Virus record (IMG/VR): IMGVR_UViG_3300033067_001661
Coordinates: 96,001-160,000 of that record
Reading direction: 5' to 3' (one strand)
Source: a virus
Lineage: Duplodnaviria; Heunggongvirae; Uroviricota; Caudoviricetes
DNA length: 64,000 nt
Part shown: positions 1,464 to 37,552 of the stretch, one piece after another
How the letters are laid out: each line of letters starts with the position of its first letter
Position numbering within the stretch: position 1 is the stretch's first letter
Notes under the pieces: model-generated
What the model was told of the DNA's origin: nothing
Database searches by the model: none
What the model saw: only the letters and a program-made list of their open reading frames with translations
Program-made: the position numbers and the translations under genes

Positions 1464-2215
1464 TTCTTTCTATCTCCATATGTTTTAAGAACTTCGGACA
1501 AGCTAATTCTTGGAAAAACCTCAACAATTCCACCCGAGGCATTGAGAATTCTTCCTTGCATCAGTCTTGGGTTCATTTCAGCAAAATGACTCCAATACAA
1601 GTCGTATGCAACACAGTGATTATCGACAGGTTTATCTCTGAGCAACCCTCGATTCGGTGTTGAAAATATGCGATTATTATACTCTATAGCCTTGGGCTGA
1701 TTAGGAAACTGCCAGTAATACCTATTTCTTCCTTCAAAACAACCGTCCATGCCAAGAAGAATAATAGGATCGCATCCCATAATATAAGCAATATGCATCG
1801 CCGAAGCAGCCGACGTTCTCGCCCCCATAATGGGCTTTTCTGGATCGTCCGTCATAATGACATTCTCTTTATGATAAATCAATCCATTTGGACCCGAAGA
1901 AGCCCATCCTACATGATCATAAAATAGAACTTCTTCTGGCCTAAAAATAGACTCATGACCTTGAAGCTTTTCTCTATAAAGAAGCTTCAAACACTTACTT
2001 TGCTTAGCCGTTACTTGCCAATAGTTCCAACTACAAACGCCATTATCATCGGTTACAAAATAATCGCAGTTAGGGAACTTCAACAAACCAGAGTTAGACG
2101 TAAAAACAACATAGTCCTTTAGACTATCCGTTTCAACATGCCGCAAAGAAGGGCCTGCGCCAACGATAAAACCAAGCTTACCTTTATGTTTGTCCTTAAA
2201 GTCCCTTAGATGCAT
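1460..2215 (-). CDS. DUF115/Maf-like (MptE-like) putative nonulosonate glycosyltransferase
   Basis: FKDKHKGKLGFIVGAGPSL, TSAASAMHIAYIMGCDPIILLGMD and ILNASGG match the Maf_flag10/DUF115 pattern. Confidence 0.75.
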   Translation of the reverse strand: MHLRDFKDKHKGKLGFIVGAGPSLRHVETDSLKDYVVFTSNSGLLKFPNCDYFVTDDNGVCSWNYWQVTAKQSKCLKLLYREKLQGHESIFRPEEVLFYDHVGWASSGPNGLIYHKENVIMTDDPEKPIMGARTSAASAMHIAYIMGCDPIILLGMDGCFEGRNRYYWQFPNQPKAIEYNNRIFSTPNRGLLRDKPVDNHCVAYDLYWSHFAEMNPRLMQGRILNASGGIVEVFPRISLSEVLKTYGDRKK

Positions 2216-3196
2216 TCAAAACTCCTATTACTTCTTCTTCTCTTATAAGGCGGTTCTTCGCCATATTCAAATACTCTTGTTTGCCATCTATTCCAATGAA
2301 CTTCCGCCCATTTTGCAAGGCTATAACACCTGTCGTACCTGAACCACAGAAAATATCAAGAACCACGCTTTTGTCAACTTCATTTGTTTCGCAACTACAA
2401 GTTTTCAACCATCCGACAGTCTTTGTATCAGTTAGATGCCTTCCCGAATCCCTATTTGCAAAACCCTTCTTATCAACCTTATTGTGTATGCCAGGACGAG
2501 TTGAATAGCGAGTTTTCTGAACTTGCCTTTCATAAGGAGAGCCACACGCCCTGCAACAACCATGACCGCTAGTTGAAGCTAAAACACAAGGTTCAACCAA
2601 ACCTTGAGGAAAGACAGCAAAGTGAGCGCCCTTAAAAGACGCAACAGGAACGGTCCAAACGTCCCTTTTGATACGTCTCTTAAAAGAACCGTCCGCATTG
2701 CGTTCAACAGCATTCTCTTTTATAGACTCTTGATCATAATAATAGTTTTCAGACTTACCAAGAAGAAATAGATATTCATGCGAAGAAACTGGCCTATCCG
2801 TTACGCCTCCAGGAAGGGGATTTGGTTTGGCCCAAATTATGTCGCTTCTCAAAAACCAACCGTCTTTTCTTAAAGCAAAAGCGAGCATCCAAGGGATTCC
2901 CAAAAGGTCTCCCTTTTTATATCCTTCGCCGGAAGCTCTTGCGTAAGTATCGCCTATATTAAGCCATACAGTTCCGTCATTTCTAAGAACACGTTTAGCG
3001 GCAGAAAACACGCTAACAAGCTTAGCTATATACTCGTCAGGAGTCTTTTCAAGACCAATCTGATCTTGAAAATCATAATCTCGCAACTGATAATAAGCTA
3101 ATAGGGCGGAGAAGTCACAATAGCATGAACGCTATTGGGACTCATTCCGCCCAACACTCCTTCCGTATCACCGCATAATAATTCATAGTTTGCCAT
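2196..3196 (-). CDS. Beta-class N4/N6 DNA methyltransferase interrupted by an 8-nt insert (stop plus frameshift) in the SPPY motif; recoded gene or pseudogene
   Basis: ATG at 3196 gives MANYELLCGDTEGVLGGMSPNSVHAIVTSPPY* (TAG at 3100-3098). Another frame continues YQLRDYDFQDQIGLE...WLNIGDTY...DIIWAKPNP...HFAVFP...VLDIFCGSGTT. Removing 3093-3100 restores a 330-aa protein with SPPYYQLRDY. Confidence 0.9.
3093..3103 (-). other. Candidate translational bypass (stop-hop) site: TAT TAG CT TAT
   Basis: Matched Tyr codons at 3103-3101 and 3095-3093 flank an in-frame TAG. Landing on the second TAT restores the frame. Function is inferred. Confidence 0.45.
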
Positions 3197-3254: not shown

Positions 3255-3992
3255 ATGAAGAACGAAACCTTAGCCTATCTGGCAGGAGCAATGGACTCTG
3301 ATGGTTGGTTTTCAATAAAAAAATCAGATTACAAAACAAGAGTCATCAAAGACTGTTATTATCCTACTTATCAAGCAAAAGTTGGACTAAAACAAGTAAC
3401 TCCTCAAATTCCAAATCTATTACATTCCATTTTTAGAGGTAGCCTGAGAAAAGAAAAAGGACAATCAGAAAACAGCAAAGAACTCTTTGTTTTTGAATGT
3501 AACAATCAGCAAGCTATTGCTTTCTGTAAAACCTTGTTTCCTTTTCTTGTTGTAAAGAAACAACAAGCCAAAATTATTTTAGAATTGGAAGAGACCAGAA
3601 ATCGCAAGTATCTAATGCACAGTTACTGGTTCAGTCAAAAATATCCAAACTGGAAAAATGACGAACTTCTTAGTAGCCAAGAAGTTTGTCATATTTTGGG
3701 GTACAAAAATCTAAGCTCAGTATCTCAAGCAGTAAAAAACGGCCTTTTACTTTCTGTGAAAGGAGCTTATCACTTAGCCAGTAAACCTCGTATACCTAAA
3801 AAACTTGTTGAAATAGTCTTAGAAGAGCAAAGAAAAGGGAAAGACGGGAGGGTTAGAACTTCTCCACAAGAAGTTGTAGAATGGAGGGAGAGATTATACA
3901 AACAAGTAAGAGAACTAAATAAAATAGGCATTCATGGTACGGAAGTTTATTTCCGTACAGGGTATCATACCAGAAAAGATGGGGCTATTTAA
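3255..3992 (+). mobile_element. Free-standing single-motif LAGLIDADG homing endonuclease with an inserted HTH
   Basis: TLAYLAGAMDSDGWF motif, FPFLVVKKQQAKII, HTH-like LLSSQEVCHILGYKNLSSVSQAVKNG. GGAGG RBS. Opposite strand to neighbours and AT-rich. Confidence 0.85.
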
Positions 3993-16575: not shown

Positions 16576-17424
16576 TCACGGAAAACACATTGGCAATTTT
16601 TCTTTATCTTGAGCATAAGAGCTTTTCTTGACAACCAAAACTTCTACAGCCGTATCTTTTTTATCAGAAGTTTGCATATGCTTTACGACACTCTTCTCAT
16701 AAAAAGAGTAACCTTTACTTTCTGGATAAAGCTGCCTTATAAAGGGACTATCGTAATAGGATATTGCAACAGAACCCTTTATGCTGTCAATGTATTTAGC
16801 CATGTCTTTATGGTTGAAACCATCAGTCATGTTGACATGATAGAACATCTTCTCAACATTTTCATAAGGAGGGTCCAGGTAAAATAAAGCCTCTGGACAG
16901 TCCCACTTCTTAATACATTCCTTGTAATCAAGATTTTCTATGTAAACGTCTTTGAAGAACTTAGCGCATTTAGCAACAAAAGGCGGCAAGGTCGCCCAAG
17001 AAAGACAAATATTCTCTCCTGTTCTTGAAACGCACCATGTTCCGTCTTCCTTTCCAAACATAGACTGTCTATTGTAGATAAGATAGTTTCTTGCCCACTC
17101 AACAGGATCTTCTTTTACAAAGTCCCTCTTCGATTCGATATACTCAACCGCTTTCTCAAACTCTTCTCTAGAATATGGAGTTAATTCAAGCTTCTCAAGA
17201 AAAACATCTTTGTAATCTCTAAGAACTCTAAATAAGTTCCATACATGACTATCTAAATCATTGTAAACCAAACGATACTCGCCGTCTGGCTTTGGCAATA
17301 CAAAACCAACGGCAAAGCTACCGCCAAAAGGTTCGCAATACAGCGTATGCTTTGGAAATAGCTTTTTGATCCAATCTCTAAGCTTGACTTTGCCGCCAAC
17401 TCTTTTTATGATTGTATCTGCCAT
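16576..17424 (-). CDS. Dam/D12-class DNA adenine methyltransferase
   Basis: RVGGK, YCEPFGGS, VYNDLD, FYLDPPY. Confidence 0.9.
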   Translation of the reverse strand: MADTIIKRVGGKVKLRDWIKKLFPKHTLYCEPFGGSFAVGFVLPKPDGEYRLVYNDLDSHVWNLFRVLRDYKDVFLEKLELTPYSREEFEKAVEYIESKRDFVKEDPVEWARNYLIYNRQSMFGKEDGTWCVSRTGENICLSWATLPPFVAKCAKFFKDVYIENLDYKECIKKWDCPEALFYLDPPYENVEKMFYHVNMTDGFNHKDMAKYIDSIKGSVAISYYDSPFIRQLYPESKGYSFYEKSVVKHMQTSDKKDTAVEVLVVKKSSYAQDKEKLPMCFP

Positions 17425-17918
17425 TTGCCATTTCTCTTAATAAGAAGCACGCCCTGCTCTTTTAGTATATTTCTGAACTTACCAGTACCATATTTAGTAG
17501 GCTTTTCAATAATCGGAGCATTCTCGAAAACTTCCTTGCTAACCACAAACGCACCTTGTAGATCAATAGACACAATAACTAAATAGTTTGTTCTAGATTG
17601 CCGAGGATTATGAGTTATACTCTTTCTGTTAGGAAATGAAAAGCCTTCCGATTCAACCCTCTTGGGTAAGCTCTCAGCGCTCTTCCAGAATTCTTTCACT
17701 TCAACGTCAAAATAAACCGCATCCTTCTTACTATTAACTCCCCTAACATCCCAAAAAGTTAGATCACCGTCTTTCATTTCATTTTCGCGAAGAAAAATAT
17801 CCGTATAAAAGCCTGAAGCCTCTAGTATTTCCTTTAGAGTCTTCTTCCCAACAAGGTCATACTTGTCATTAAGTTCCTTATCAAAGGGTTTTTGATCATC
17901 AAGAAAATGCATAATCAA
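17406..17918 (-). CDS. Putative PD-(D/E)XK nuclease
   Basis: WDV...YFDVEVK fits a D-Xn-(D/E)xK catalytic signature. Overlaps the dnaE-N stop and the MTase start. Confidence 0.55.
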   Translation of the reverse strand: MIMHFLDDQKPFDKELNDKYDLVGKKTLKEILEASGFYTDIFLRENEMKDGDLTFWDVRGVNSKKDAVYFDVEVKEFWKSAESLPKRVESEGFSFPNRKSITHNPRQSRTNYLVIVSIDLQGAFVVSKEVFENAPIIEKPTKYGTGKFRNILKEQGVLLIKRNGKWQIQS

Positions 17919-19309
17919 TACCTATCTACGCCACCGGCGTCTTCTGTTACATCCCTATCTTCAAACAACTCTTCGCTGACAGGCTTCTCTTCGACCTTTG
18001 TAACAACCTCTCCGAAGAAGTCCTGGTCTTGAACAAAATACTTGTCGTCGAAGCCAAGGAATCGCTCCCAAATCAAATCATACTTCAATGGGTCTGGACC
18101 GTAAGCAATACCAAGCACTCTAAGAAGAACGCTTGCATAACCAGAACCTCGACCGCAACCAGTAAGGATAGACTTGTTAGTAGCCTCTTGAATGTAATCT
18201 CGAACAATAAGGAAGTAAGTTGCAAAATCGTATTTGTTATTCTCCCATGCAACTCTAACATCTTCAAGCTCTCTCTTGAGCCTTTCCTTATGAGGCTCGC
18301 TACGATCCCATCCAAGTTTCTTCATACCTTCCCATGCAATATGAGAAAGATAATCAAACGGAGAGGCAAAGCCTTCTGGAATCTTGTACCTAGGCAACCT
18401 CATGCCAGAAGTCATGTTCTCAAAAATATCCTTAGCATCTATCTTATCAGCAACCATGACTGTATTGAGAAGAAACTCTGGATGAGATCCAAACATTACA
18501 GACATCTCAAGAGCAGACTTGAGATAGAATTCATGGTACGGAAAATGCAATCTCTTTGGATCGTTAAGACAACGACTCGTACTCATGCACATGAGTATTT
18601 CTTGTGAAGAACCATGCTCTTTCTTACAATAGTGACAGTCATTTGTGGCAATGATTGGAACATTCATTTCATTGCCAAGCTTTATGATATCAGGAATAAT
18701 TGCCGCTTCCGCTTCAATTCCATGATACATAACCTCTAGATGGAAGTCTTCCTTGAAAATATCCTTGAAAAGAGCAACAGACTTCTTAGCCTGGTCATAA
18801 CGGTCATGAAGCAAGTTAGCGTTGATAACGCTGCTAAGACAAGCTGAATTACAAATCAAACCTTCGCTATGTTCAGCCAAAAGGTTGATATCAATTCTTG
18901 GGTCAATATAAACCCCTTCGGTCCATGACTTTTGAGATAAAGAGCAAAGGTTCTGCCAACCTTTCCAGTTCTTTGCAATAAGAACCAAGTGGCGATTACC
19001 TTTTCTTCCGTCAGGTTGACCCTTCACAATCTTATTGCCGTCTTTCTTTTCACCTCTCAAGTGACGGTCTTTAGACAAGTAGAATTCGCAACCAATAATA
19101 GGCTTTATACCCTCTTTATTGCATTCTTGAGTAAACTTGACCGCTCCGCCCATATTGCCGTGGTCAGTCAACGCTAAGGCCTTAAACCCCATTTCCTTAG
19201 CAGCCTTAGGAAATTGAGATATCTTATTCAAGCCGTCAAAAGACGAATACTCGGAATGATTGTGCAAATGCACAAAATCGCTATTGCTTATGATTTTTGC
19301 CATAGTCAT
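17915..19309 (-). CDS. dnaE: DNA polymerase III alpha (DnaE), N-terminal half (PHP domain plus palm segment to WERFL)
   Basis: FVHLHNHSEYSSFDG, ALTDHG, PIIGCE, HLVLIAKN, SACL, TNDCHY, YLKS, GRGSG, DPLKYDLIWERFL, then an acidic tail and a stop. Confidence 0.93.
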   Translation of the reverse strand: MTMAKIISNSDFVHLHNHSEYSSFDGLNKISQFPKAAKEMGFKALALTDHGNMGGAVKFTQECNKEGIKPIIGCEFYLSKDRHLRGEKKDGNKIVKGQPDGRKGNRHLVLIAKNWKGWQNLCSLSQKSWTEGVYIDPRIDINLLAEHSEGLICNSACLSSVINANLLHDRYDQAKKSVALFKDIFKEDFHLEVMYHGIEAEAAIIPDIIKLGNEMNVPIIATNDCHYCKKEHGSSQEILMCMSTSRCLNDPKRLHFPYHEFYLKSALEMSVMFGSHPEFLLNTVMVADKIDAKDIFENMTSGMRLPRYKIPEGFASPFDYLSHIAWEGMKKLGWDRSEPHKERLKRELEDVRVAWENNKYDFATYFLIVRDYIQEATNKSILTGCGRGSGYASVLLRVLGIAYGPDPLKYDLIWERFLGFDDKYFVQDQDFFGEVVTKVEEKPVSEELFEDRDVTEDAGGVDRY

Positions 19310-19346: not shown

Positions 19347-19625
19347 CTAACCATGTTTCTTGGGGTCAAATCGCTCTCGAATGCCCTTTTCTTTATCATG
19401 AATCCACTTAGGTCGTGTTTTCCTAATATGATCACGAACATCCGAGCATCTGTCCCAAGCTGGTTTGCCGTCTCTAATGGCTGGCGCGCAAATAGCCCTA
19501 CGGATTGGCTTGCCGCTTTCAGGATCAACAGTAAGAGCGTCGTCTTTCATGCTTTGAAAGATCTCAATAGTCTCACCTGTTGGCTCGCCCTCTTTACTCA
19601 GTATCTGGTATATGTAGGTTGGAAT
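19347..19625 (-). CDS. FmdB-family putative regulatory protein (Cys-less variant), probable AUU start
   Basis: (I/M)PTYIYQ...EIFQSMKDDALTVDPESGKPIRRAICAPAI. AAGGAG at 19638-19633 lies 7 nt before ATT at 19625. An alternative ATG at 19652 has no RBS. Confidence 0.7.
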   Translation of the reverse strand: MPTYIYQILSKEGEPTGETIEIFQSMKDDALTVDPESGKPIRRAICAPAIRDGKPAWDRCSDVRDHIRKTRPKWIHDKEKGIRERFDPKKHG

Positions 19626-19674
19626 TTTTGATCTCCTTGAAGGAATTTTCATGCCGCATAACTAATATAAATGT

Positions 19675-20445
19675 ATGAAAAAGATAATCATATCAAAGCG
19701 TGAATTAGAAAAAACGATAAATAGTAGTAACTCTAGAAAAGAAATTTTAGACAAACTTCAAATATCTCAATCTACATTTTACAGCATATGCTCTTCATAT
19801 AAAATATCGGCAATAAAACCTAAATTTAACGAAAACTATTTCGAGAATATAGATTCAGAAAGAAAAGCTTATTGGCTTGGTTTTATTTTTGCAGATGGAT
19901 GTGTTTCGGAAATAAAGGGTTGTTCAAAATTCTTGTCCATTTGCCTATCAAGAAAAGACAGAGAACATCTTGAACTATTTAGTAAAGATATAAAATCTTC
20001 TATCAAAATACATGATTATCATAATAAGCACGATTTTTCTTATATTCGTTTGTATTCAGATAAGATAAGTAATGATTTAATCAAACTTGGATGCACTCCG
20101 AGAAAATCACTAACACTCCAATACCCAATCCTAAATAAGAATATGGATAGACACTTTATAAGAGGATATTTCGACGGAGATGGATGCGTTTCACATCATA
20201 ATAATGGAGCAAGGGGAGGGCCAAGATTATCTATTATAGGAAGTGAAATATTTTTAGATGAAATGCAAAACAAATTACATGAACATTTAGGAATAAAAAA
20301 GAGACCAAAACTATTTAGATCAGGAAGTGCCTACAAATATGATAGTACCGCATACAGTTCTGTAAAAACAATAATGGATTGGCTATACAAAGATTCCAAT
20401 GTCTTCCTGAGCAGAAAAAGAAATTCTTATTTATCTGCTATTTAA
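19675..20445 (+). mobile_element. Free-standing two-motif LAGLIDADG homing endonuclease
   Basis: AYWLGFIFADGCV and RHFIRGYFDGDGCV, plus FNENYFENIDS, GCTPRKSL and FLSRK. AT-rich, opposite strand. Confidence 0.9.
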
Positions 20446-20678
20446 TTTACGTTGGCATTGTCTTTACTATGTCCTGCGCATTGAACAACAATGGATGTTA
20501 CAAAGTTCTTTTTGTATACCTTCCATTCAACCTGTCTTCCAAAGACAGTTATCTTTACAGGCTCAATGGGATTAGAACAATCCACTGTTTCGCAATCATT
20601 GCATAAAGGGGAAACAACTCCAAGAGGCCCAACAGGAAGCCTTTCAAGAGGAACAAGTTTGCACTTATACTGGCTCAC
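20442..20678 (-). CDS. Small Cys-rich hypothetical protein
   Basis: CxC, CNDCETVDC and QC; overlaps its neighbours. Confidence 0.55.
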   Translation of the reverse strand: MSQYKCKLVPLERLPVGPLGVVSPLCNDCETVDCSNPIEPVKITVFGRQVEWKVYKKNFVTSIVVQCAGHSKDNANVN

Positions 20679-26690: not shown

Positions 26691-28019
26691 TCAGCAGGCG
26701 CAGAGAATGTTGTTCAAAAATATACCGCAACTATCGTCGCACGTTATTGTAAACGTTTTTTCTATTGAAGTATCTTCTACGCCACAAACTTTGATTCCAA
26801 CAACAGAAGATTCAACAAGTTTTGATAGAGAAGAGCGCTTGCTCTTTTTCTTGATATACTTGTTCAAATCCGCAGCCATATCATGATTCATAACAACATT
26901 ATCTTGTTCAAAGAGGGCAAGCTTTTCATACTTCTCAGCAGCCATGCCAACGTCTGTCTTGATACTTGAAAGGGACTTGCCAAACTTATAACCTAGCAAA
27001 TCAACGGCAGGAATAGGCTTATCTACAAGCTCTGTCATGTAATCATCAACCTTAATGACAAGAGACTTAATCAAGTAAGGTATAGAGCTAAAGAATGTTT
27101 CAATATGACCGCTATCAATAATTATGTAAGAAGAACGAGACATGAAAGGTACTATGCCAAATATAAGCAAGCACTTGCAAAGCCTGTCAGAAGATATTTC
27201 GCCGCCTCGATGAAGAGAAACGCATGGCTTAAGTTTTGCCTTATCAACAAAGCCAAAGGCATTACTTGCATGAAAGTATCCCGCAAGATAGTTTAGTACA
27301 ATTTCTTCATTCTGAGAAGCGACTTCTTTCAAGAAAGAGTCAATCAATGTAGCAACAACTTTGTTTTGAACCCTAACCAAATCTCCATTAATCTCTGGTT
27401 CAACAAGAAAGCATGAAGATATAGCATGAGCAAATATACTATTCACAACCTTGTCGTTAGCGCTGAAAAGAATGTCGCCAGTTTCAAGATTATAAGTTCC
27501 TTTGCAATCAATAAGGCCAGCAGCAAAAGCCAATCCCATCAAGAAACTAATAGACATAGAAGCGTCTGCTTGATGGATCTTGCCTCCAACTCTTTGCTTT
27601 ATAAGCGAACCCTTCTTATTGGGAAAGACATTTTCGATCTGAAAGTTGTTCTCTCGAAAAGAAAGAGACTTTGGCATCAAAAGCAAATCACCACCAACAA
27701 GCTCGCCAACAGAAGCCTTATTCAATTCTCCATTTTCATTAATGTAGACCATGCAATCATGCTGCAATTCTAGAAAAGAACCGCAACTCTGTATTCTCGC
27801 CAGCTTAGAAGGCGATGCTTCGACGCATGACTGAATTCGAACAACCTTTGATTGCCAGGTATCCTGGTCAAAACCCATTACCTGCAAACTTCCTTTTTTA
27901 AGGACATTTGGCAACTCGGAAACTCGATAGCTGTTTCCATAAAGATCATGCAGGAAAGAATTCCCGCCAACACCTTTGATACTAGAACTTATCTTGACTT
28001 GACCTTTCGACATGAACAT
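26691..28019 (-). CDS. Stand-alone degenerate intein-like protein (Hint plus LAGLIDADG-like), no exteins
   Basis: Block A-like GVGGNSFL, block B-like LELQHDCMVY...ASVGELVGGDLLLMP, endonuclease helices FLMGLAFAAG and YLAGYFHAS, block F/G-like KVCGVEDTSIEKTFTITCDDSCGIFLNNILCAC-stop. Confidence 0.72.
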   Translation of the reverse strand: MFMSKGQVKISSSIKGVGGNSFLHDLYGNSYRVSELPNVLKKGSLQVMGFDQDTWQSKVVRIQSCVEASPSKLARIQSCGSFLELQHDCMVYINENGELNKASVGELVGGDLLLMPKSLSFRENNFQIENVFPNKKGSLIKQRVGGKIHQADASMSISFLMGLAFAAGLIDCKGTYNLETGDILFSANDKVVNSIFAHAISSCFLVEPEINGDLVRVQNKVVATLIDSFLKEVASQNEEIVLNYLAGYFHASNAFGFVDKAKLKPCVSLHRGGEISSDRLCKCLLIFGIVPFMSRSSYIIIDSGHIETFFSSIPYLIKSLVIKVDDYMTELVDKPIPAVDLLGYKFGKSLSSIKTDVGMAAEKYEKLALFEQDNVVMNHDMAADLNKYIKKKSKRSSLSKLVESSVVGIKVCGVEDTSIEKTFTITCDDSCGIFLNNILCAC

Positions 28020-28518
28020 GCTCTCTTAGTGGTTTGAGTATTACGAAAACGATGTTGTCTGTAACCCTTAATTCGTCCCATTTTGCAACATCTCCGAGGT
28101 CGGACACCGCCTTGTTGAGAAGTTCTTTCGCATTCGAAACGAACGCTCTTTCTCTTCCCTTTAGTTCGATTCCAAACTTAACAAGGCACTTCTTTTCAAG
28201 CATGCCTCTAATCTTCGTCTTTTTCACCTGAATGTCGTGTTCTCCTGTCTTCAAGTGAAACATCATTTCTTTTGTTTCGGTAGGTTTGCTACTGTTTTTC
28301 TTTTTTGAAGCTTCAAACTTAAGCTTGCCAGCGTCTGCAAACTTACAAATAGGAACACCCTTGTCATTCTTCGAAACCTGAACAAGGTCAAAACCTCGTT
28401 CCCTCGCTTGGGAGATTGCAAGTTTCCTGTTAGTCTCTCCCTTGCTGACCCCATTCTCGTCAATTACGATTACGGAGTAACCATAAATCTCTTCATTCGC
28501 CAAAATCCTGCCAGTCAC
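27982..28518 (-). CDS. infC: Translation initiation factor IF-3
   Basis: ANEEI, VIDENG, ARERGFDLVQV, PICKFADAGK, KEMMF...GEHDIQVK, KGRE. Start re-called at GTG 28518, 6 nt after AAGGAG. Confidence 0.9.
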   Translation of the reverse strand: MTGRILANEEIYGYSVIVIDENGVSKGETNRKLAISQARERGFDLVQVSKNDKGVPICKFADAGKLKFEASKKKNSSKPTETKEMMFHLKTGEHDIQVKKTKIRGMLEKKCLVKFGIELKGRERAFVSNAKELLNKAVSDLGDVAKWDELRVTDNIVFVILKPLREHVHVERSSQDKF

Positions 28519-36630: not shown

Positions 36631-37341
36631 TTATCTCATTGGCAAAAACGTCTTACCAGACCATTTCTTCTTAAACTTATCGTAACTCTGCGTGAAAAAC
36701 TTCATCCTATCCTTATCTTTACCTAGGGTCTGATGCGGTAAGTGATCTATCTTCGCTAGGCTATTCCAGCCTATTTTGAAACCAGCCTCTCTTGCCCTAA
36801 AGTTGAAATCAGGATCTTCAAAATAAGCGGGATTGAACTGCTCATCAAAAAGTCCTAGCTTATCAACAACCTCTTTCTTTACCATCATTCCGCCGCAACC
36901 GACATAGGTATATGGATCGCCTTTCTTCTTGCAGTTATGTCTTGGCATGAAACTCGAATCCATAAGCCAAGCATCCGCTCCAACTAAATCGTAATTACCG
37001 CTCTCCATAAACTCATGATATTGCTCAAGCCATCCCGCTCGAACAAACTGATCATTATCAAGAAAACACAAAAGTTCTGTTGGGTCAGATTGATAAAGAG
37101 CATAACCCATGTTACGCCCGCCAATAACCCCAAGATTTCTGTCGTTGATAACGAGAGTATGGTTCTTAAACATTGAAAGAGCATCTGTCAAATACTCTTT
37201 CGTTCCGTCTATAGAACCATTGTCAATCATAATAAGATTGAAAACTGAAGGTTCTGTATATTTGAAAAGTAGTTCTATGAATTTCTCCGTTACAGCTTTG
37301 CCATTATAGGAGAGAACTACTATAGTTGTTTGCTTCGTCAT
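36631..37341 (-). CDS. Glycosyltransferase family 2
   Basis: IVVLSYN, IDNGSIDGT, GRNMG, FLDND, AYFEDPDF. Confidence 0.9.
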   Translation of the reverse strand: MTKQTTIVVLSYNGKAVTEKFIELLFKYTEPSVFNLIMIDNGSIDGTKEYLTDALSMFKNHTLVINDRNLGVIGGRNMGYALYQSDPTELLCFLDNDQFVRAGWLEQYHEFMESGNYDLVGADAWLMDSSFMPRHNCKKKGDPYTYVGCGGMMVKKEVVDKLGLFDEQFNPAYFEDPDFNFRAREAGFKIGWNSLAKIDHLPHQTLGKDKDRMKFFTQSYDKFKKKWSGKTFLPMR

Positions 37342-37342
37342 T

Positions 37343-37552
37343 TTACATTCGGTTTACTTTGTCAAGCTTCAAAAGATCAGCATCAGAAATCTCACCTGTC
37401 TGGCAAAACTTCTTTATTTTGTCCAAAGAAACACCAGACAGTTGCGATATCATTTCGCAATCATTACCCATAAATGACAATTCTTCTCTCATTGCCTCTT
37501 TAGATTGCAATAACTTGGATTTCTTCTTCACGGCTTTCTTCTTCATTGCCAT
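37343..37552 (-). CDS. Small HTH-like protein
   Basis: MISQLSGVSLDKIKKF resembles an HTH; fills the gap between two genes. Confidence 0.5.
   Translation of the reverse strand: MAMKKKAVKKKSKLLQSKEAMREELSFMGNDCEMISQLSGVSLDKIKKFCQTGEISDADLLKLDKVNRM

Follow-up and report, generated by a model that had tools for sequence, protein, structure and literature searches.

A LAGLIDADG endonuclease cassette inserted into the first codons of an FmdB-like phage gene, with AUU as the probable start of the rebuilt gene

The Seg and Mob families of phage T4 are free-standing endonucleases that spread by intron-less homing and are for the most part GIY-YIG or HNH enzymes of intergenic regions. The locus described here resembles them in its stand-alone ORF between or within conserved genes, with neither intron nor intein, in its presence or absence among close relatives and in its presumed spread by double-strand-break repair with co-conversion of the flanks. 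It differs from them in that the endonuclease is a LAGLIDADG protein, is encoded on the strand opposite to the host gene, lies inside the first codons of that gene and brings a Shine-Dalgarno sequence and a start with it. At the T4 mobA / gene 60 locus, the insert is tolerated by translation and confers protection against MobA (bioRxiv 10.1101/2022.08.31.505936; Bonocora et al. 2011 PNAS 108:16351, as cited there). T4 shares with our locus a free-standing endonuclease that travels with an adjacent, translationally tolerated alteration of the host gene, whose function is kept after the coding insertion, but in T4 the endonuclease is a nickase of the HNH type, the topoisomerase gene is split and ribosomes bypass 50 nt. 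At the present locus we find instead a LAGLIDADG protein, an 11-nt duplication that rebuilds the 5' end and a proposed non-AUG start with no bypassing; a protective role, shown in T4, is conceivable here.

In E. coli, pcnB has an AUU start. The gene of IF3, infC, also starts at AUU, and in an E. coli reporter the expression obtained from AUU was 6-8 times below that from AUG (PMC3592434). Like infC and pcnB, the gene studied here is conserved and has its candidate AUU behind a Shine-Dalgarno sequence near the end of the upstream cistron, with an output that would be below that of AUG. The AUU of infC is fixed, with a role in the autoregulation of IF3; here, by contrast, some close relatives have ATG and others ATT, and the phage carries an IF3 homologue of its own. 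We know of no published description of such a start-rebuilding arrangement. What sets it apart from these systems is the preservation of the host gene by means of an 11-nt duplication, a new Shine-Dalgarno sequence and a non-AUG start, all carried on a LAGLIDADG cassette.

The DNA analyzed (hereafter the window) spans 64 kb, from base 96001 to base 160000 of an IMG/VR virus record of 333.6 kb. The completeness of this record was judged to be 66%, which makes this uncultured phage a giant of roughly 500 kb. The features of the locus are collected in Table 1. A minus-strand ORF, 19347-19652, runs from ATG 19652 over 101 codons to a stop at 19347-19349; the FmdB-like gene that it contains sits directly upstream of the N-terminal half of dnaE. 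Nine codons into this ORF we observed ATT-CCA-ACC-TAC (I-P-T-Y). A search of 5.8 billion proteins recovered 13 protein clusters of homologues, nearly all of them 92 aa long, which start with M-P-x-Y-x-Y at the position of the window's I-P-T-Y. Of the loci scored on viral and metagenome contigs, 82 of 86 have ATG as the codon aligned with ATT, as do all 80 loci from genomes of Phycisphaerales and other Planctomycetota. In the window's own 90% cluster, 10 full-length variants of 92 aa begin with Met, as against three variants of 101 aa that share the same 9-residue cassette leader (P0014, P0018 and P0021). P0026 is otherwise identical to the window protein and begins with Met. The longer calls P0005, P0008 and P0009 look like gene-caller extensions; a genuine N-terminal extension was seen in no relative, and the conserved ATG was present at the ATT position wherever DNA was available. 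Two calls are irregular in other ways, P0008 having Leu at position 1 and P0024 being shortened. The original prediction had placed an ATT at the conserved Met of a family beginning with MPTY, 7 nt behind AAGGAG; this was confirmed in the sequence, and the M-P-x-Y-x-Y start of the family was borne out by the clusters and loci above.

Table 1. Position of the features discussed, in window coordinates.
Feature	Position	Strand	Details
FmdB-like gene without Cys	19347..19625	-	Read from ATT; 92 codons and stop; from ORF and homologue alignment
Right copy of the 11-nt imperfect direct repeat, ATTCCAACCTA	19615..19625	-	Rebuilt functional 5' end
Proposed AUU start codon (ATT at the conserved initiator position of the family)	19623..19625	-	From alignment
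Insert	19626..20447	.	822 nt; absent from L011, present in L001; from BLAST
Shine-Dalgarno sequence AAGGAG	19633..19638	-	Supplied by the insert; 7-nt spacer (19632-19626) before ATT
Alternative in-frame ATG	19650..19652	-	Nine codons upstream; without Shine-Dalgarno sequence; would give a 9-residue N-terminal extension
LAGLIDADG homing endonuclease gene	19675..20445	+	256 aa, 771 nt; Pfam LAGLIDADG_3
Upstream 78-aa gene	20442..20678	-	Tail now ends in the relic
Left copy of the 11-nt repeat, ATGCCAACGTA	20448..20458	-	Relic of the old start; now part of the upstream gene's 3' end
IF3 homologue	27982..28518	-	GTG start behind AAGGAG; Pfam IF3_N 4e-15 and IF3_C 7.6e-14, above threshold

The FmdB label given earlier to the gene holds in part. 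Zn_ribbon_8 (PF09723) was matched at E <= 0.1 by 9 of 14 relatives (best 9.6e-6), all below the curated threshold, and a Planctomycetota homologue gave an E-value of 2.8e-6 and 27.7 bits, for a cut-off of 34.4. The window protein itself had no Pfam match at E <= 1, and the gathering threshold for PF09723 was reached neither by it nor by its relatives. The phage-type family resembles FmdB in its N-terminal M-P-x-Y-x-Y and in a predicted beta-hairpin core. It differs in having a conserved C-terminal half of its own and no zinc cysteines: in the alignments, the four zinc-ligand cysteines (CxxC...CxxC) are missing from the phage and Planctomycetota forms; the first pair is present in the canonical L002 and L003, as C-x-x-x-x-C in the residues shown. 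On these similarities the window's family would be only loosely FmdB. The AlphaFold model of the protein (pLDDT 78) has an N-terminal beta-hairpin core, and a Foldseek search of this model against the PDB gave no significant match. No PDB sequence was matched by the FmdB-like family or by the endonuclease, tblastn of the FmdB-like protein against GenBank phages found no match, and blastn with 5 kb found a sole match of 71 nt in a crAss-like record. At least 10 contigs carry the FmdB-like ORF in intact form. The gene is under purifying selection, since it differs from the L011 allele by 18 synonymous and 3 non-synonymous codons.

L011, located on a 165-kb ENA metagenome contig, is the one close endonuclease-free allele that was compared as DNA. 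Its protein is 97% identical to that of the window, it has no endonuclease and it is continuous across the insertion site. When L011 was aligned to the window by BLAST, both flanks matched and exactly 19626-20447 remained unmatched; the insertion point lies 11 nt into the FmdB-like coding sequence. On the minus strand, the left junction consists of ATGCCAACGTA, the 11 nt with which the L011 gene begins, followed by the 3' end of the endonuclease gene, and the right junction consists of AAGGAG, 7 nt and ATTCCAACCTA, followed by the rest of the FmdB-like gene. The two copies of the 11-mer differ by two changes, ATG to ATT and ACG to ACC. Besides the endonuclease ORF, the insert contains 49 nt that include the new Shine-Dalgarno sequence, and 2 more nt. 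An identical arrangement was observed in L001, a 101-kb IMG/VR contig, so that the insert is present in the window and L001 and absent from L011 at the same nucleotide. A search of the viral contigs with an exact DNA pattern for the empty site gave no occurrence. A duplication longer than 11 nt was considered and rejected, the further similarity of the left junction to the gene being indistinguishable from chance. The direct repeat AAAATTCC noted earlier at 19621-19628 and 19642-19649 does exist, although alone it is not beyond chance, because 8-mers repeated at a gap of 10-16 nt occur at about 20 loci of the 64-kb window.

The insertion also affects the upstream gene. In L011 the ATG of the FmdB-like gene lies inside the end of the upstream 78-aa gene, and in endonuclease-free relatives the upstream gene either overlaps the FmdB-like start or is adjacent to it, an arrangement that implies coupled translation. 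The tail of the upstream gene after a conserved Gly-His is 13 residues long, and 8 residues long with the insert.

The plus-strand LAGLIDADG gene proposed in the original prediction was recovered as an ORF that matches Pfam LAGLIDADG_3 (E 1.7e-12) and lies head-to-head with the minus-strand ORF from ATG 19652, at a distance of 22 nt. LAGLIDADG motif-like segments ending in D-G are found at about residues 66-77 and 159-171 of the translation. The protein is a putative two-motif, single-chain LAGLIDADG enzyme, because the LAGLIDADG_3 match covers two stretches. The endonuclease is present as a single copy in the genome and is 99% identical in L001/L091; its other relatives are only 33-40% identical and uninformative on the ends of the cassette. 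No Rfam match was found in the 822-nt insert at E <= 1. With this result, only 51 nt outside the ORF and an endonuclease on the opposite strand, a group I or group II intron was rejected, and on the same three grounds the element is a free-standing homing-endonuclease cassette, neither intron nor intein. The mirror cassette that had been reported at 3.1-4.0 kb also exists, as a LAGLIDADG-like ORF (3255-3992) head-to-head with a methyltransferase whose frame is broken after SPPY; the endonucleases of 3255-3992 and 19675-20445 are unrelated in sequence.

ATT was also observed at the conserved start in two endonuclease-free relatives, L005 and L015. In L005, a 170-kb IMG/VR contig, a stop is followed by GAGAGG, 5 nt and ATT, and there is no in-frame ATG, GTG or TTG from the upstream stop to codon 23; it is the only ORF in the 170-kb record with such a signature. 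At the stop-start overlap, where its relatives have TAATG, L015 has TAATT, and GGGAG stands 7 nt before it. L015 has an in-frame GTG at codon 5, and on a contig of just 1.6 kb a single-base error is possible. In a maximum-likelihood tree, the three ATT lineages are placed apart from one another, each with ATG alleles as sisters: the window, L001 and P0021 fall among P0026, L011 and P0019, L005 beside P0004, and L015 beside L014. It had been predicted that the start would be ATG when the endonuclease is absent. This held for L011 and failed for L005 and L015, in which ATT occurs regardless of the endonuclease.

A general habit of ATT starts in this phage clade was rejected by a survey of 408 reciprocal-best orthologue pairs, in which this genome was compared with a 494-kb relative (G003) and with the 170-kb L005 record (G001). 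Across these pairs, the FmdB-like gene alone had the conserved ATG aligned to a non-canonical codon with no canonical start within a codon or two, and ATT is therefore specific to the FmdB-like gene. These distributions suggest that AUU is a tolerated or favoured low-output start of this gene, one that does not depend on the endonuclease. IF3 discriminates against AUU starts, as at infC, and the phage IF3 homologue could be a possible regulatory link to an IF3-sensitive start. As a requirement for ATT, phage IF3 was rejected: homologues are present in G002-G005, including ATG relatives, and none was found in the ATT-bearing G001 fragment.

Two codons compete as the start of the window gene. 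The calculated energy of the duplex with the anti-Shine-Dalgarno sequence was -8.5 kcal/mol before ATT and +1.0 kcal/mol before ATG 19652, and the AGGAG-to-start spacing peaks at 6-7 nt genome-wide. The energies of the three ATT lineages (-8.5, -9.7 and -8.4 kcal/mol) were all below those of the ATG alleles, which ranged from -6.1 to +0.4 kcal/mol over six loci from five independent lineages (exact one-sided probability 1/84, six ATG values). From these energies and the alignments we propose that AUU is probably the main or co-main start in this window; AUU initiation would be more likely for L005 than for the window. Initiation at AUU still inserts Met, and the product would thus equal that of the ATG alleles. 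Rather doubtful in our view is the alternative in which the canonical ATG 19652 is the start, ATT an internal Ile codon of a 101-aa protein and AAGGAG merely coding sequence. That ATG is in frame, no stop lies between it and ATT, and gene callers chose it for all three 101-aa forms; the chance of such an open in-frame ATG by accident is estimated at roughly 10%, which argues for its use, now or in the past. A Shine-Dalgarno core is missing from about half of the genes in this genome, so initiation without one is possible. However, this reading has to accept an unfavourable energy at 19652 when a 6-nt site stands at the optimal 7 nt before ATT, an extension that is real in no relative, a conserved ATG at the position of ATT, and an ATT in L005 with no upstream alternative start at all. 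The leader showed no significant RNA structure (fold z = +0.79), which leaves a hairpin masking the Shine-Dalgarno site unsupported, and a sigma-70 promoter scan remained at shuffle level. That the gene is inactivated in endonuclease-bearing genomes, with ATT as the mark of a pseudogene, would fit the loss of both the ATG and the coupling to the upstream gene, but the intact ORF in 10 or more contigs, the excess of synonymous differences from L011 and the new optimal Shine-Dalgarno site make it highly improbable.

Given AUU as the probable start, we considered why ATT accompanies the endonuclease. Since ATT belongs to the duplicated 11 nt at the insert's right edge and would be copied along with the cassette, physical linkage alone explains the association in this lineage. 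The original prediction paired the endonuclease with an immunity change in the neighbouring gene; the pairing stands in so far as endonuclease and ATT form one physical unit, and it breaks down in the two endonuclease-free lineages with ATT. Because of the 11-nt duplication, the right junction is a near-copy of the presumed target, and with its ATT and ACC changes a role in self-immunity is conceivable: the two substitutions would spare the target recreated at the right junction, and AUU initiation would fit with this. Between the right junction and L011 there are only 3 differences in the 22 nt centred on the insertion point, two of them being these changes, ATG has no synonymous alternative, and the T4 mobA / gene 60 cassette offers a precedent (bioRxiv 10.1101/2022.08.31.505936, citing Bonocora 2011). 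We nevertheless regard this as unlikely, as ATT recurs without the endonuclease in L005 and L015, the insertion itself splits the target and replaces everything upstream of -11, so that recognition may already be abolished, and GTG or TTG would break the same triplet at a lower cost for translation; moreover, the substitutions next to the junction (5 in 44 nt) are close to the flank average of about 8%. Linkage could extend further, if the Shine-Dalgarno sequences and ATT starts of the endonuclease-free relatives were scars of lost cassettes and ATT always derived from an endonuclease. L005 does have an extra stop, Shine-Dalgarno sequence and ATT, a 17-nt insertion, exactly at the window's cassette junction. 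Yet this insertion has no similarity to the ends of the window cassette, L015 is one base away from its TAATG relatives with no insertion, and neither the L005 nor the L015 lineage yielded a relative with an endonuclease, which makes such an origin improbable. The leaders of L005 and the window are not repeated elements in three genomes, and they were rejected as repeated mini-cassettes on this ground. It is likewise improbable that the first codons of conserved phage genes are recurrent landing sites of homing endonucleases that must restore the start of the gene they enter, with a strong Shine-Dalgarno sequence and AUU as a signature that stays behind as a scar once the endonuclease is lost. 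If this were true, the L005-type allele would be a fossil left by a previous invasion, and the rare AUU starts of phages would for the most part mark past endonuclease occupancy.

Taken together, the joint explanation that we favour, with moderate confidence, is that a cassette inserted 11 nt into the FmdB-like gene and rebuilt its 5' end, that AUU is the likely start, and that the cassette spread by homing. A LAGLIDADG cassette of 822 nt has entered the first codons of the FmdB-like gene, and the original ATG and 8 nt are left behind as a dead remnant that closes the upstream gene. The cassette brings a replacement initiation region consisting of AAGGAG, 7 nt, ATT and the first 3 2/3 codons; the host gene thereby stays whole, though its former coupling to the upstream gene is lost. 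Translation would most likely begin at AUU with initiator tRNA and yield the protein of the ATG alleles at a lower, Shine-Dalgarno-dependent output. The cassette would spread by double-strand-break repair, ATT being copied along.

The locus presents a problem for annotation, as gene callers extend the gene (to 101 aa) or, in L005, would truncate it. Near-identical alleles with and without the insert, together with independent ATT alleles, form a natural test set in which AUU behind a strong Shine-Dalgarno sequence may be compared with a coupled AUG, and the same alleles could show whether changes of the start codon protect against the endonuclease. For the phage endonucleases, the arrangement would represent a route into coding sequence that uses neither intron nor intein, in which the element duplicates the first 11 nt of its host gene and supplies a ribosome-binding site and a start.

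As presented in the table below, a second LAGLIDADG-like ORF was observed near the start of the window, arranged head-to-head with a DNA methyltransferase gene. The methyltransferase frame is open past the SPPY motif, then meets a TAG codon and resumes in a different frame as ORF 2196-3086. We found no sequence relatedness between this LAGLIDADG-like ORF and the endonuclease at 19675.

Two further matches to the family were detected in the giant-phage genome. The weaker one, flanked by ORF 36631-37341 and a 3264-aa gene, may be a decayed endonuclease remnant. The best match of the genome is embedded in an open frame of 1015 aa, a placement suggestive of an endonuclease carried by an intein.

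Features in and around the window
Feature	Position	Strand	Details
DNA methyltransferase gene	window 2196-3196	-	start at about 3196; frame broken
LAGLIDADG-like ORF	window 3255-3992	+	LAGLIDADG_1, E 0.004
IF3 homologue, phage-encoded	window 27982-28518	-	both Pfam domains above threshold
LAGLIDADG_3 match, weak	window 37270-37443 (G000:133270-133443)	-	E 0.0017; 3 in-frame stops
LAGLIDADG_3 match, genome's best	G000:C1:263905-264153, outside window	-	E 1.7e-15
Extra 120-aa ORF	L005:4279-4641		between FmdB-like gene and dnaE N-half; no assigned function

Between the two dnaE halves, the window and L001, the contig carrying the same endonuclease cassette, were only about 80% identical at 16583-17426, compared to 97% otherwise, and positions 17427-18014 could not be aligned. 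Judging from this alignment, segment 16583-18015 is a variable cassette. The extra ORF of L005, the endonuclease-free relative with an ATT start, is absent from the window.

The gene for the homologue of IF3, the factor discriminating against AUU starts, itself begins with GTG, 6 nt after an AAGGAG motif. Its product is conserved at 58-75% in four related giant-phage records, and no IF3 was found in the 170-kb fragment G001, including at the syntenic place.

Among the protein-level relatives of the FmdB-like gene, P0008 has a leucine at the conserved initiator position, preceded by a called extension of 19 residues, and P0024 is a 67-aa call from an internal methionine on a 7.3-kb contig. Either of these, available as protein only, could represent an additional non-ATG start allele. 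All 80 cellular homologues of the N-terminal half (L139-L218, genome contigs) were located in Planctomycetota MAGs, mostly Phycisphaerales, with a best identity of 72% over 50 residues. This distribution of the cellular homologues is a possible clue to the phage host or to the origin of the FmdB-like gene.
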